This document shows positions 1-29,197 of a stretch of 64,000 nucleotides of DNA, piece after piece; the stretch's first letter is position 1; every line of letters starts with the position of its first letter. The position numbers and the translations under genes were made by a program. This DNA is from Lewinellaceae bacterium (GTDB taxonomy: Bacteria > Bacteroidota > Bacteroidia > Chitinophagales > Saprospiraceae). Location: assembly GCA_016712415.1 (NCBI GenBank), contig JADJRC010000015.1, forward strand, positions 43,670-107,669, in the 5' to 3' direction. The notes under the pieces were generated by a model. The model was not told where the DNA came from and did no database searches. It saw nothing but the letters and a program-made list of their open reading frames with translations.

Positions 1-447
1 GCGCTCGTTGAACGTCTGAAATGCCAGGCCCAACAGTATTTCGAAATTTTCCTCAACGGGTATCCGCGTGCCTATTTCATGCCGGGCGCCGAAGCCGTGG
101 TATTTGAACGGAACCAGCCCCGAGGCTTCGTTTCCCGGTATCGTGTCGACCTGGTACTTGCCCCAGTACCCGAAAAAGCCGCCACTGTAATAGAAGTGTT
201 TGCGCATGAACGAAACATGGGCCGCAAATTCGGAGGAATTGTTTTTCTCGTTATCGTAGTAAATCACGCCCCTGCCTGTTCTTCCGGATATGGATACGGC
301 ATTGGCTTTCGCGCCCTTGTAAACGGGCTTCGCCATATAGGCGTTGTTGCTTCCCAGGTAAGCGGGGCCGTATTTGGGGGCGCAACTTTGCATCAAGAGG
401 GCAACCAGCAGCATCGCTGCAGACAATCGCAAAAAAATCGTTTTCAT
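1..447 (-). CDS. hypothetical lipoprotein-like protein; the 3' end lies outside the window
   Basis: An ATG at 447 (minus strand) opens a stop-free frame that runs to base 1 (149 codons). It is missing from the supplied track because there is no stop codon in the window. The N-terminus MKTIFLRLSAAMLLVALLMQSC looks like a signal peptide with a lipobox-type Cys. The + ORF 79..459 is its antisense shadow. Confidence 0.5.
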   Translation of the reverse strand, partial: MKTIFLRLSAAMLLVALLMQSCAPKYGPAYLGSNNAYMAKPVYKGAKANAVSISGRTGRGVIYYDNEKNNSSEFAAHVSFMRKHFYYSGGFFGYWGKYQVDTIPGNEASGLVPFKYHGFGARHEIGTRIPVEENFEILLGLAFQTFNER

Positions 448-24791: not shown

Positions 24792-25166
24792 TTATTCAGG
24801 CTTAAAATAAGGATTTTTGATAATGCCGATCACGTTGCCCCAGGGGTCTTTTACAGTGGCCACGATGATGCCTTCACCGACGTCGGCGGGTTTTGAAAGC
24901 GCCGTGGCGCCCTGTGCCAGCAGGCGATCGTAAGTGACAGCCGCGTCGTCGACCCCCCAGTAGGTTTCCACGTTTGCTGTCTTGCCGGCGGCCGGGGCAT
25001 CGTCGGGCAGCAGGCCGAGTTCGAAGCCGCCTACATTGAAACCCACGTAGAAGGGTTCGTTAAAATAGGGGCCGAAGCCAAGCACTTCCGAATACCATTC
25101 TACCGCCCGGGCGAGATCGTCGACACGGTAGATGCAGGTGCGCAGACCTAGAAACGGCTTATCCAT
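24792..25166 (-). CDS. VOC (glyoxalase/bleomycin-resistance) family protein
   Basis: 124 aa. LRTCIYRVDDLARAVEWYSEVLGF ... VKDPWGNVIGII is the classic paired beta-alpha-beta-beta-beta pattern. Confidence 0.8.
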   Translation of the reverse strand: MDKPFLGLRTCIYRVDDLARAVEWYSEVLGFGPYFNEPFYVGFNVGGFELGLLPDDAPAAGKTANVETYWGVDDAAVTYDRLLAQGATALSKPADVGEGIIVATVKDPWGNVIGIIKNPYFKPE

Positions 25167-25253
25167 GGATCAGGGATTGAGGTGAACAAATATTGTTGCC
25201 GGCGGCAAAAGTAATAGAAATTGTTTTTAAAAATAAAACTTTTTGTGTTTTAT

Positions 25254-27159
25254 TTATTGACCCTGGCACGGAACTTCAGCCTTTACCTGTTCAATAAGAT
25301 TGTTTAGGGATGGTACAAAAAGACTTGAGGAGATAACAGCTTCTGAAAGAGCTGTGCATGCCTGGTTATTATTTCCTGTTTTATTCAATACTTCTGCCAT
25401 CCTGGCAAGTGTATTGGCTACAAATTCGGCATAACTTACCTTTCTATACAGGAGAAGGGCATTGCCCCACTCTTCAAGAGCCAGGGGGCCGTTATTTTCG
25501 TTATACCATGCAATCATGCCTTTGCTCCACATAATGTTTGCTTTTCCCAAATCCGAGCCTACTTTTTCAAAAAGGGGGAGAGCCTGCTGATAGAGGGCAC
25601 GCGCTTTGTCGTTTTCGCTCAAAAGCCTTTCCAAATCGCCCAAACTTTTGAGCGTGTTTGCTTTCCCAAATCATCGCCTACTTTTTCAAAGGAGAGCCTG
25701 CTGATAGAGGGCACGCTTTGTCGTTTTCGCTCATTCATTTCCAAATCGCCCAAACTTTTGAGCGTGTTTGCTTTCCCAAATCCGAGCCTACTTTTCAAAG
25801 GGGAGAGCCTGCTGATAGAGGGCACGCGCTGTCGTTTTCGCTCAAAAGCCTTTCCAAATCGCCCAAACTTTTGAGCGTGTTTGCTTTTCCCAAATCATCG
25901 CCTACTTTTTCAAAAAGGGGGAGAGCCTGCTGATAGAGGGCACGCGCTTTGTCGTTTTCGCTCATTCGCATTTCCAAATCGCCCAAACTTTTGAGCGTGT
26001 TTGCTTTTCCCAAATCCGAGCCTACTTTTTCAAAAAGGGGGAGAGCCTGCTGATAGAGGGCACGCGCTTTGTCGTTTTCGCTCATTCGCATTTCCAAATC
26101 GCCCAAACTTTTGAGCGTGTTTGCTTTTCCCAAATCATCGCCTACTTTTTCAAAAAGGGGGAGAGCCTGCTGATAGAGGGCACGCGCTTTGTCGTTTTCG
26201 CTCAAAAGCCTTTCCAAATCGCCCAAACTTTGGAGCGTGTTTGCTTTTCCCAAATCCGAGCCTACTTTTTCAAAAAGGGGGAGAGCCTGCTGATAGAGGG
26301 CACGCGCTTTGTCGTTTTCGCTCAAAAGCCTTTCCAAATCGCCCAAACTTTTGAGCGTGTTTGCTTTTCCCAAATCCGAGCCTACTTTTTCAAAAAGGGG
26401 GAGAGCCTGCTGATAGAGGGCACGCGCCGCTTCGTGATTGTCAAAAAAGAACCATTTGTTTCCAAGATTTAGGGCAACCTGGGCATAGTCAGCCGCAAAT
26501 CTGTCGCCTTTGGTTACAAGGGGGTCCAATTTGTGCAGGCGTTCTTCCAGTTCATCAATTTCCTGCTGTTGCTTGGGGGGCATGGCCGTGGCGAGGCCTG
26601 AAAACCGGGATTCGATATTGTGTTGCCATTGAAGTGTGCCGGGCAACATGCGGAAGTGGAACTTATAAACCAGCCAATCCCAGAAGTCGGGAGCAAGGCT
26701 TTGCACTCGGACCTGTGCGGGCTCGTCGCTCCAGAAGACAACTGAGGCCGGAAGGTGGCGGAACAAGAGTTCCCGTTCGAAGTTAAGCTCGCGAGCAAAT
26801 GCTTCTGCCGGGTCATTTTCATCGGCCGTTACAAGCGATTCCAAACCAAAGATATGGAACAGTGGATAAGTGTCGTTTTCCGTATCCGTTACTGCTGTCT
26901 CTTGCCTTAGCAGTTGGTAAAGTGAGAAGGAGTCGGTTACTTTTACTTTCGAAAGATTTTGCGATTTGTGGATATAACGATCTTGTAATTCAATGCTTAG
27001 CAGGCGAAACATCTGGTCCCGGAGGTCGCGATTTTCTGCTGTTACCCATACGATAACTGGATGGTCACGCTGTTGGAGCAGATTGAGCATCCTGTTCCAC
27101 GCAGTGTCGTTCTGTGTTCTGATCTCATCACGTTTTTGTTCCAGTTGTTCCCTGTTCAT
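25254..27159 (-). pseudogene. protein with a roughly 240-aa N-terminal domain of unknown function, about 8 near-identical 40-aa TPR/Sel1-like helical repeats and a helical C-terminal cap; the frame is broken by small deletions in the last three repeats
   Basis: ORF 25795..27159 (454 aa) holds 5 repeats of ALYQQALPLFEKVG[SD]DLGKANTL[KQ]SLGDLE[RLL/MRM]SENDKAR. ORFs 25619..25825 and 25254..25643 continue the same repeats in other frames and end with ...NNLIEQVKAEVPCQGQ. The start ATG overlaps the upstream ATPase stop (ATGA at 27156-27159). Confidence 0.7.
25540..26425. repeat. tandem 120-bp coding repeat array (about 8 units)
   Basis: Units starting at 25921, 26041, 26161 and 26281 are exactly 120 bp apart and almost identical. 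A further unit starts at 26401 and diverges. Units starting at 25578, 25692 and 25803 are 111-118 bp long because of small deletions. Confidence 0.9.
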
Positions 27160-28464
27160 GCTTTCTCATCAGATTTTGGAAAAAAATCCTCAAGCAGGGG
27201 ATTGATCCGACGGACAATGTCGTCGCCATTGTATTCGAATACGTTGAGGGCAAAAAGCAGATCGAGTAATTCGGGTGAAATACCTTCAAAGTTGCGGCTT
27301 TCAAGTAGTTTGCGGTGCGAATCGGTGAGTGGACGCAAACGTTCTACGGCTAGTCGTTTAAACGTACTTTTGGCTATTTCCGTTGTGACGGTTTCATCTG
27401 TATCAAGAAGGCACTGGTTGACCAGCCGAAGTAATTGACGCGGGCTCCCACCGGACATTTTAGTGATCATTTTCAATACGTTATTATCAAACAGCCCTTT
27501 GTCGACCCGGCGGGTCACTATGTTGCAAAACGCTTCGCAGTCTTCATCTTCGTCTATATGAATCATCGGAAGATATGAAAACTTGAACAATTCAGCCGCC
27601 GCAGCCTGTTCCTGTACATTGTAATAGGTTTGAATAGGTACACAACAAATAAGGTGAGCGTTCAGGTTTTGGGTAAACTGCGGGTCGGTTAGGAAGATAG
27701 CATTATAAATTTCCGGACGGGCTTTTTCAAAATCATCAACGATAAAGATCAAATCGCGGCCCTTACCATGTCGCTCGATAGCATCGCGTACGCCAACGAG
27801 AGCGGTACGAAGCTGGCCTACGAGCCCGGGTGTATCGCGGCGTATCGCCTCACGAATTTTTGTGGTGGTACTATTCTGATAACCGTATTTACTTTTAATA
27901 AATCCTTCTGCAGAAAAAATATCCCAGAAATTCCAGCCTGCTTTTGCCTCGACACCCGCTTCTGCTCCATAGTTGTAATTCAATTCTTTTTCAACTTCTT
28001 TATCCTGTAGCCATGCGTGTGCGATGTCTTCGAACTCTTTTTTTATTATATGGGACATTATGTTCGCGAAAGGTGCGCAAAAGTTTGTTAATCAGAATGA
28101 TAAAAAGGTCTTCCGGTTGCATTTTGAGGATTTCAATTTCTTCCTGCAAACTGACAAATACCGAAAAATACTGCCTGGGGGTGTTAATTGATTCATGGAA
28201 CCGGAGAAGTTCGACGGTTTTGCCGCATCCGCGATGCCCGGAGAATAAAATTTTTATGTAGTCATTGGGCAAATGTGTCAGCTCATCACCTGTGATACCC
28301 AAGTCTTTTTTTATCCGGGTAAATTGCTTGGGACTGCGCAATTCCTGCAGATGCACGTATAGGTTCTCTCTACCGGATTCAAAGATATCGAACTCGGGCT
28401 CGGTAGTTTCCATGGCCCGGAAAACGTCTTTTTCTGGAAAGGTATATTGATATTTTTTGTTCAT
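27156..28464 (-). CDS. ORC/Cdc6-like AAA+ (STAND-like) ATPase, with a 1-bp indel in the T7 run at 28038-28044
   Basis: Start MNKKYQYTFPEK at 28464. Walker A ILFSGHRGCGKTVEL, Walker B DLIFIVDDFEK, sensor-2/lid-like SGGSPRQLLRLVNQCL. ...TFREHNVPYNKK joins EFEDIAHAWLQDKE when one base of the homopolymer is removed, which links ORFs 28000..28521 and 27156..28058. Confidence 0.75.
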
Positions 28465-28551
28465 TTTTTTAAAGAAAAGCAAGCAAATGTAATGACTTTG
28501 GCTGTTACAAAACGCAATCATCTTCTTGCGTAAATAACATAATTGCTGAGG

Positions 28552-29103
28552 TTAGGTTGTACTGTACGCATCCGCCTCCTTAAACCGCCAAATGTCGTAC
28601 ACCATCACGGCAATAATGATTCCGGCAGGGATAAAAAATATTTTTGTGTGCAGGCTGGGAAACAAACCGACACTCAGCATGGCGCCGAATACAAAGCTGA
28701 TCATTACGATAAAGCGCAGCAGCGCTTCCCGCTGGATGAGGCGGCGTTTCTCCCCTTCGGAATGGAATATTTCGGCGATGTCCACTCCGAGTTCATTGAC
28801 CACACCCGTCATCTGGCTGGCCTTGATCAGGGAGGAGGTCGTGAGGCTTACCATGGCATTCTGGATACCGATGGCAAACAACATCATCCCCGGAAAAGCC
28901 ACGGGGTGCAGTGCTCCGGAATTGTCGGCGGCGGCGGCGACGAACGTAAAAAGTCCCGCCACAACAGCCAGCGGTACCAGGTGGAGGTAGCGCCACTTCA
29001 ACAGTTTTTCGCGCTCCACGCACCACCCGGCAAAGAAGCCGCTTTTTCGTTCGGCTTGATCAGGATTTCGCCCAATGCAGGCGGTTTGAGGTATTCGTAC
29101 CAA
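28552..29103 (-). CDS. DUF1275/YoaK-like membrane protein (N-terminus uncertain)
   Basis: 183-aa ORF with several hydrophobic helices and the motif AIGIQNAMVS typical of YoaK-like proteins. An ATG at 29124 lies in another frame, so the 5' end may also be frameshifted. Confidence 0.45.
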   Translation of the reverse strand: MVRIPQTACIGRNPDQAERKSGFFAGWCVEREKLLKWRYLHLVPLAVVAGLFTFVAAAADNSGALHPVAFPGMMLFAIGIQNAMVSLTTSSLIKASQMTGVVNELGVDIAEIFHSEGEKRRLIQREALLRFIVMISFVFGAMLSVGLFPSLHTKIFFIPAGIIIAVMVYDIWRFKEADAYSTT

Positions 29104-29197
29104 CGGTTTTTCATATGCGGTTGATTATTCTATCCTAAAATGTTGATTTTTGCGGGTCAATCCAATCCACATCTACTTTTCCATCAAGGCAGTAAAC

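Follow-up and report, generated by a model that had tools for sequence, protein, structure and literature searches.

The 64,000-nucleotide stretch analyzed here (henceforth the window; contig JADJRC010000015.1, positions 43,670 to 107,669, of the Lewinellaceae bacterium assembly GCA_016712415.1) encodes on its minus strand, at 25254..27159, a protein that combines a conserved, unnamed N-terminal domain (N-domain) with an array of near-identical 120-bp tetratricopeptide repeat (TPR) units, and directly upstream of it a P-loop ATPase. We consider it likely that this array is the ligand-binding arm of a sensor-switch system split between the TPR protein and the ATPase, and that the frame breaks in the assembled genes are errors. 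The reading is carried by the confinement of all differences between the intact units to five codons in shuffled combinations, the location of most of these codons at TPR positions known for ligand contact, and the occurrence of the two genes as an accessory pair. The array by itself is a clear example of a kind of thing that is not new; the split two-gene family with its unnamed, putatively docking domain is the more noteworthy part.

Cassette-like variation in a near-identical TPR array

Tandem Repeats Finder recovers one array at 25535-26427, with a period of 120, 7.6 copies, 92% matches and a score of 1520, and the genome holds it in single copy. The array is coded on the minus strand, and its translated repeats match the Pfam TPR_12 family (PF13424) with E=1.3e-37 and 128.2 bits versus a cutoff of 30.1. 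The closest proteins of solved structure, judged by sequence, are LGN/GPSM2/Pins, whose TPR domain (E=3e-16; PDB 3sf4, 4wng, 5a7d) likewise has a 40-residue period; these are eukaryotic polarity proteins with divergent repeats, and the likeness is of fold only. Cutting at TGTTTGC delimits seven full units and a partial first unit over 25535..26427, with starts at 25535, 25655, 25765, 25878, 25998, 26118, 26238 and 26358, of which the last-named is the partial unit and runs into unique sequence. As assembled, the array consists of about eight 40-residue TPR units. Five of them (25535, 25878, 25998, 26118 and 26238) are exactly 120 nt long, and the unit at 25535-25654 is intact and identical to that at 26238. 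With two units identical and the five intact ones differing at no more than 8 of 120 nt, the array falls within the range of 80-85% or greater likeness that marks repeats of high internal conservation (HIC).

A sequence-only reading of this DNA had described the 120-bp units as near-identical except at three sites, each with two alleles in shuffled combinations, and this description is borne out in detail. The five intact units differ at 8 of 120 positions, all of them within five codons read on the minus strand, and agree at the other 112. The three sites are K/Q (codons AAA and CAA), RLL/MRM (AGG CTT TTG and ATG CGA ATG) and S/D (TCG and GAT), and translation agrees with the earlier protein reading of E-MRM/E-RLL, GS/GD and K/Q. 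Every site has two alleles among these units, and all 8 differences are non-synonymous with none being synonymous. When eight sites were distributed at random in 200,000 trials, they fell into five or fewer codons in 0.3% and into three or fewer clusters in 2.5% of the cases. The cassettes occupy the same offsets in every unit, namely +19..21 for S/D, +87..92 for RLL/MRM and +114 for K/Q; in the minus-strand unit at 26118..26237, for example, they lie at 26137-26139, 26205-26210 and 26232, respectively, in plus-strand coordinates.

Read from the N- to the C-terminus, the array begins with the partial unit bearing S, continues with K-RLL-S, Q-RLL-D, K-MRM-S and K-MRM-D, and ends with a damaged K-RLL-S, a damaged K-M.M-D and an intact K-RLL-S. 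All four combinations of RLL/MRM with S/D are present. Given that alleles that are 3-4 nt apart are unlikely to arise twice, the occurrence of all four combinations suggests, by reasoning of the four-gamete type, that the units have exchanged segments. This points to exchange between units, by unequal crossing-over or gene conversion, as the explanation for the combinations, which recurrent mutation cannot plausibly provide. Further, the seven units carry S and D in strict alternation, suggesting a 240-nt super-unit. Tandem Repeats Finder also reports periods of 240 or 360 bp in several relatives of the gene, and a preference for even numbers of TPR motifs is described by Dyrka et al. 2014 (PMC4986451).

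Targeting by a diversity-generating retroelement was considered as a source of the variation and rejected, as the eight differences, which on the coding strand read G/T, T/G, T/A, T/A, T/G, C/A, G/T and A/C, share no A on either strand. The island described below contains only two genes, and no genome-wide search for a reverse transcriptase was made.

Location of the variable residues in the TPR

We placed the variable residues on the canonical TPR numbering by aligning the units to the pattern A1...L7 G8...A20...Y24...A27. In this numbering, K/Q is position 5, RLL/MRM corresponds to positions 12-14, and S/D is position 36, in the loop preceding the next repeat. Magliery and Regan (PMC1261162) give positions 2, 5, 9, 12, 13, 33 and 34 as the most variable in TPRs and place them on the concave face, and list positions 2, 5, 6, 9, 12 and 13 as peptide contacts in HOP. 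Three of the five variable residues of the window (5, 12 and 13) are such published concave or ligand-contact positions. We infer that the variable residues at 5, 12-14 and 36 line the concave groove and would set its binding specificity.

Two tests on related proteins bear on this prediction. The first used 18 family arrays, excluding that of the window, drawn from 127 scorable proteins by requiring a self-identity of at least 0.33, a seed hit and at least three units, with cutting based on the period. Across these arrays, variability within a protein is highest at columns 2, 12, 9 and 13, and in the three closest arrays at columns 6, 12, 5, 36, 2 and 13; for these three closest arrays, the five columns of the window stand out against random five-column sets with P=0.0014. 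The second test, which started from 12 hand-picked arrays and, with the window left out of the total and two single-unit arrays uninformative, drew on nine with at least two clean units, compared non-synonymous and synonymous codon types, which stand at 42:9 at columns 2, 5, 6, 9, 12 and 13 versus 174:91 elsewhere (Fisher P=0.02). We regard the tests of column variability and codon types as supportive, not decisive.

The upstream ATPase and the N-terminal domain

Directly upstream of the TPR gene, at 27156..28521 of the minus strand, lies the gene for the P-loop NTPase, recognizable by a Walker A motif GHRGCGKT, a Walker B motif LIFIVDDFE and the signature SGGSPRQLL. Its stop codon overlaps the ATG of the TPR gene, and the latter is translationally coupled to the KAP/STAND-like ATPase. 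Residues G72, G75, G77, K78 and D240 are invariant in 46 homologs of the ATPase. The protein nevertheless scores below every curated family threshold: the best match, obtained with an intact homolog from the related genome G189, is to the Sll1717 family with E=1.1e-7 and 31 bits versus a cutoff of 75, and the same homolog shows weak matches to NPHP3_N (E=0.022) and AAA_14 (E=0.028). No NACHT or NB-ARC model matches the ATPase, and its profile recovers nothing below E=0.01 from PDB. As for KAP_NTPase (PF07693), there is no Pfam match to it at E<=0.1, and it is seen only on part of the members of neighboring Atlas clusters and on distant matches. The closest clusters in the ESM Atlas, by features and predicted structure, are proteins of about 430 residues with KAP_NTPase, NPHP3_N or AAA_16 on some members. 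In PADLOC-DB 2.0 there is no match to the ATPase fragments of the window, and the intact G189 ATPase hits only Cas11e, with E=0.0063 and 15 bits.

The N-domain (26455..27159, minus strand) spans approximately 175-235 residues, with the core NFERE...APDFWDW...FHF as its invariant part. The domain lacks an annotation: none of the families in Pfam, NCBIfam or PADLOC extends over it, there is no sensible Pfam match at E<=1, and its best match among PDB sequences has E=2. Its comparison with the ATPase profile revealed no similarity (hhalign probability 0.7%). In the ESM Atlas the domain occurs in unnamed clusters only and is commonest in Cyanobacteriota. A profile built from seven N-domains matches 1254 cluster representatives at E<=1e-3, of which 202 reach E<=1e-10 and 39 reach E<=1e-30; nearly all of its best 150 matches start within about 30 residues of the protein start, the latest doing so at residue 53. 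The N-domain is inferred to dock the TPR protein on the ATPase.

Frame breaks and versions from other assemblies

As assembled, the whole gene for the N-domain and TPR array is split into the open reading frames (ORFs) 27159-25795, 25825-25619 and 25643-25254. The first of these codes for 454 residues (P0001), starting with an ATG and a non-repetitive N-terminus of 230 residues followed by the 40-residue repeats. The frame then breaks twice, and the last unit together with a C-terminal degenerate TPR cap, apparent from the translation of 25254..25534 (minus strand), lies in another frame with its stop at 25254. The breaks lie in two minus-strand units, 25655-25764 (110 nt) and 25765-25877 (113 nt), which together shift the frame by 17 nt. 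Compared to its best intact counterpart, each damaged unit shows four deletions, of 1+5+2+2 nt and 1+1+3+2 nt respectively; the eight deletions, amounting to 17 nt, lie in runs of T, A and G and in a GC repeat, and are accompanied by no substitutions or insertions. The sequence-only reading had correctly noted small frame-breaking deletions at the distal end, but counted three damaged units: only two are damaged, the unit at 25535-25654 being intact, and the higher count resulted from a different cutting phase.

Versions of the TPR protein from two other assemblies retain a frame that is open into the cap. One of these (P0004, 361 aa) has an N-domain 100% identical to that of the window and no extra unit, and the other (P0005, 401 aa) is 99% identical and has one extra unit; over the N-terminal 235 residues the identity to other assemblies' versions is 99-100%. 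Both read AVFISSS where the window has AVISSS, the window lacking 3 nt (AAA on the plus strand, one Phe codon) after 25334. This AAA is present behind 25334, at full contig depth, in one contig each of the sludge and wastewater runs X1, X3 and X6, and its absence from the window is probably another run-length error of assembly. The ATPase frame is comparably split by one extra A/T in the 7-letter run 28038-28044. The intact ATPase P0279 (435 aa, 8 member sequences), which reads ...PYNKKEFEDI..., implies a 6-letter run and aligns to 98% of the 300-aa C-terminal ATPase fragment of the window with 100% identity. P0279 and P0005 may be encoded on one contig, since the longest contig recorded for each has the same length of 7532. 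Similar difficulties are on record for NLR genes of Podospora, where short reads fail on such repeats and a one-base homopolymer misassembly from R9 Nanopore data is described inside a repeat (PMC11761791).

These observations bear on the alternative that the module is a genuine pseudogene, with real deletions and a real ATPase frameshift, decaying in this strain. Such decay would fit the finding of damage at three places, namely in two units, in the ATPase and at the missing Phe codon, inside a single 3.3-kb island, and accessory islands are often lost, with empty sites indeed existing. Yet all eight deletions occur in short runs without a single substitution, next to units that are letter-perfect; an intact ATPase (at 100% identity) and an intact TPR protein (at 99-100% over its N-terminal 235 residues) exist in other assemblies; and the 3 nt missing from the window are present in three runs at the full depth of the covering contig. 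We accordingly judge genuine decay to be very unlikely. The sequence-only reading had left decay and miscalling undecided, and the evidence favors miscalling: as the damage to the units consists of deletions only, intact versions exist in other assemblies and the missing 3 nt are found in three runs, the frame breaks in the two units and the ATPase are very probably homopolymer errors of assembly. In four runs the bins at 25670-25840 lack cover at 90% or greater likeness, while the flanks and the intact units are covered; this was not counted as evidence. Estimates of copy number from the ratio of short-contig to flank depth, which would amount to approximately 6-8 units for X1, X3 and X6 and to about 3 for X5, the S:D ratio varying, were likewise set aside, as contig depth is not copy number.

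A different concern is that the shuffling and the copy number are partly products of assembly, with strains that have more uniform arrays merged into an order that exists in no cell. The assembly is of the metagenome type, with 53 contigs and 3.7% contamination, and no contig in four runs spans the array. Moreover, one unit of P0005 reads Q-MRM-S, which no unit of the window does, and the other assemblies have no or one extra unit. Set against this, the S and the D context are each matched exactly by short contigs in all four runs, which come from four studies, and variation of cassettes within a gene is also seen in related genomes, including G189, which is assembled in two contigs. The alleles and their confinement to five codons would hold even if the order were wrong. 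A merger of strains thus appears unlikely as the source of the pattern, and we retain recombination between units of one array as its explanation.

An accessory island with two genes

The ATPase and the TPR gene constitute a 3.3-kb accessory island at 25253..28563, delineated by comparison with a genome of the same genus (G008), by GC content and by an X1 contig. In G008, the homologs of window 24804-25255, a glyoxalase gene, and of 28564-29042 are only 100 nt apart, and the 3.3 kb that the window has in addition are exactly the two genes. The GC content of the island is 0.460, compared to 0.538 and 0.555 in its flanks and 0.528 in the genome. One X1 contig leaves the window at 25252, continues with 12 other letters and then resumes with window 28564-28581, representing an empty site from a comparable sample. 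Two further X1 contigs exit at 25250 and 25253 into unrelated sequence, and the interval 25250-25253, which separates the glyoxalase gene from its neighbor, may be an insertion hotspot for differing cargo. The N-domain was detected in 3 of 200 other genomes of the taxonomic family and in neither of two of the genus, and parts of the locus were found in 20 runs from 16 studies of activated-sludge and wastewater metagenomes.

Pairing and independent homogenization in related loci

A search of one genome per species yielded 52 related loci. They include Bacteroidota (Saprospiraceae, Cytophagales, Hymenobacter, Chitinophagales and Phaeodactylibacter) and many Cyanobacteria (Moorena, Symploca, Tolypothrix, Anabaena and Spirulina), with single records from WOR-3, Thermoanaerobaculia and Janthinobacterium. 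In 46 of the 52 loci, and in G189 too, the gene immediately upstream is on the same strand and encodes an ATPase of this family, a pairing that holds across several phyla. No third neighbor is conserved, the largest family of neighboring genes being found in 6 of 52 loci, which makes the unit a two-gene module lacking a recognizable effector.

Repeat arrays are common in the family, the identity between repeats at the best offset exceeding 30% in 44 of 127 scorable proteins. Among these the period is 40 (30 proteins), 42, 46 or 48, with a single protein at 33. Arrays with a period of at least 90 and at least 85% matches within the gene are present in 15 of 52 loci, several reaching contig ends. 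The repeat consensus is ANTLKSLGDLE in the window, G.SYHQMGRVFEEQ in G189 and G.TLNNISQIYYAQ in the locus L040, and such differences between lineages imply that homogenization has occurred independently in each gene.

The last of these, L040:7813-8805, from a long-read metagenome-assembled genome of the Saprospiraceae, comprises 8.3 units of 120 bp, whose consensus differs from that of the window. The cassettes of L040 fall in TPR columns 11-14, 29/31 and 37-38, and frameshifts occur in its N-domain, its ATPase and one repeat.

Comparison with known receptors and the proposed mechanism

The likeness to repeats of fungal NLRs and of bacterial conflict-system sensors, which the sequence-only reading had proposed, fits the array: its units are near-identical, few codons vary (with positions 5, 12 and 13 being concave), all four combinations are present, and the gene belongs to an accessory ATPase pair. 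In the literature, fungal NLRs as well as NB-ARC/TPR and NACHT/WD proteins of bacteria are described as having repeats with units 80-100% identical, with hypervariable positions on the binding face and with recombination that homogenizes and reshuffles them (PMC4986451, 10.1101/2020.01.06.895854, PMC11761791). The HIC repeats of the TPR, ANK and WD types in fungal NLRs (Podospora HET-E/HET-D/NWD, and NB-ARC/TPR proteins such as Pa_2_10340) resemble the window's array in having units more than 85% identical, variation at few positions (on the concave helices in the case of fungal TPRs), signs of recombination and trouble with short-read assembly. They differ in that the window protein is bacterial, with 40-residue repeats, a separate NTPase without a NACHT or NB-ARC match and no effector domain.

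Among bacterial NLR-like proteins of the NB-ARC/TPR and NACHT/WD types, the preprint by Dyrka et al. 2020 (10.1101/2020.01.06.895854), citing Marold et al. 2015 and Hu et al. 2017, reports repeats that are 80-90% identical. Shared features are a TPR array with very high internal identity and a proposed quick diversification, and an occurrence in filamentous or aggregate-forming lineages, which recalls the many Cyanobacteria among the present relatives. Unlike those proteins, the window system is split into two genes and has an unannotated N-terminal domain. Neither a Bell domain nor an amyloid motif was seen in it, no search aimed at them having been made. An assignment as a strict NLR/STAND receptor was rejected, since in the window, as in 46 of the 52 relatives, one ORF encodes the NTPase and another the repeats; because the two are separate polypeptides, and no NACHT or NB-ARC match is found, the TPR protein is not an NLR. 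Another natural bacterial array of near-identical units, that of the TPR-like repeat 42PR, was reportedly described by Marold and colleagues in Structure in 2015 and is said to have a 42-residue period. The window's array differs from it in its period of 120 nt, i.e. 40 residues.

In the split sensor-switch reading that we favor, the TPR protein would recognize a ligand with the groove of the array, and the reshuffling of units would create new specificities. The N-domain would dock or couple this sensor to the ATPase, and the ATPase would in turn serve as its nucleotide-driven switch, the whole being an NLR-like system divided between two proteins and probably devoted to conflict or defense. 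This conflict role is suggested by the pattern and the distribution.

Several observations weigh against this reading. Neither an effector domain nor a defense gene in the neighborhood was found for the window's pair, and its PADLOC matches are limited to generic TPR models. The ratio of 8 non-synonymous to 0 synonymous differences, coming from only five intact units, is not significant alone. The placement of the variable residues in the concave groove derives from TPR numbering and not from a structure of this protein; neither position 14 nor position 36, the latter in the loop between repeats, is a published contact. Over all 18 family arrays the window's five columns reach only P=0.065 against random sets; some of these arrays are related to one another, and some of their end units are divergent. 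The array of the window is spanned by no read, and its order, copy number and cassette linkage may partly be a multi-strain consensus. The shorter versions with no or one extra unit may be short-read collapses instead of alleles. Finally, 6 of the 52 loci lack an adjacent ATPase, one of them (L048) having no upstream DNA.

It might also be argued that we are dealing with an ordinary scaffold or regulatory TPR protein, in which a recent amplification has left variable residues without any role in recognition or conflict. The protein shows no effector domain and matches no known defense family: in PADLOC-DB 2.0 it matches generic TPR models only (PDLC01169, E=2.5e-16) and no system-specific one. 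Furthermore, TPR proteins with ATPase partners have many housekeeping roles. However, amplification leaves unexplained the two-allele cassettes with alleles 3-4 nt apart in units otherwise identical at 112 of 120 positions, as well as the presence of all four combinations and of near-identical arrays with differing consensus in distant relatives. The module is also rare and patchy (3 of 200 genomes) and present or absent as an indel between close relatives, which is unusual for a housekeeping function. We hence regard an ordinary role as improbable and prefer that of a ligand-binding sensor arm.

A broader proposition is that the ATPase and the TPR protein with the APDFWDW domain represent a widespread two-gene module of the immune type, found in Bacteroidota, Cyanobacteria and other phyla, in which the logic of the NLR is split and the sensor is detachable, shuffled by cassettes and docked on a KAP/STAND-like NTPase by a new domain. 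We put this forward tentatively, as a possibility short of a probable one. The output of such a module would come from the NTPase itself or from an unlinked partner, and, were the proposition true, it would define a new family of defense or allorecognition systems.

Near-identical repeats with a few hypervariable contact residues are a mark of receptors that need an ever-changing recognition, a pattern that is well studied in fungi and merely sketched in bacteria. To this the present case adds a clean example from Bacteroidota with variation within five codons, a family that keeps its sensor and its ATPase as separate proteins, co-transcribed and putatively joined by a domain that no database names, and direct evidence for the gain or loss of the pair as a 3.3-kb island. 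The split form should ease bench tests of the interface between sensor and switch. The case also has a bearing on databases: short-read assemblies may collapse such arrays to no or one unit and long-read assemblies bring frame errors, with the consequence that public protein sets under-represent and misdescribe such genes.

Further observations on neighboring and related genes

Adjoining the island on the plus strand is an ORF of 193 aa (28543-29124) with no Pfam, NCBIfam or PADLOC match; its conservation in G008, at 78% DNA identity, indicates that it is part of the core flank and not of the island. In a locus from Symploca (L063:5859-12524), an open frame of approximately 2,220 residues from stop to stop, its start not set, has the N-domain first and two arrays, one of 240 bp x 8.5 at 77% matches and another of 99 bp x 5.5 at 96%; an adjacent ATPase was not found in this locus. 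In the WOR-3 locus, a second 120-bp array (L050:628-1611) with 8.2 copies and 81% matches lies upstream of and outside the N-domain gene, and may represent a further such TPR gene.

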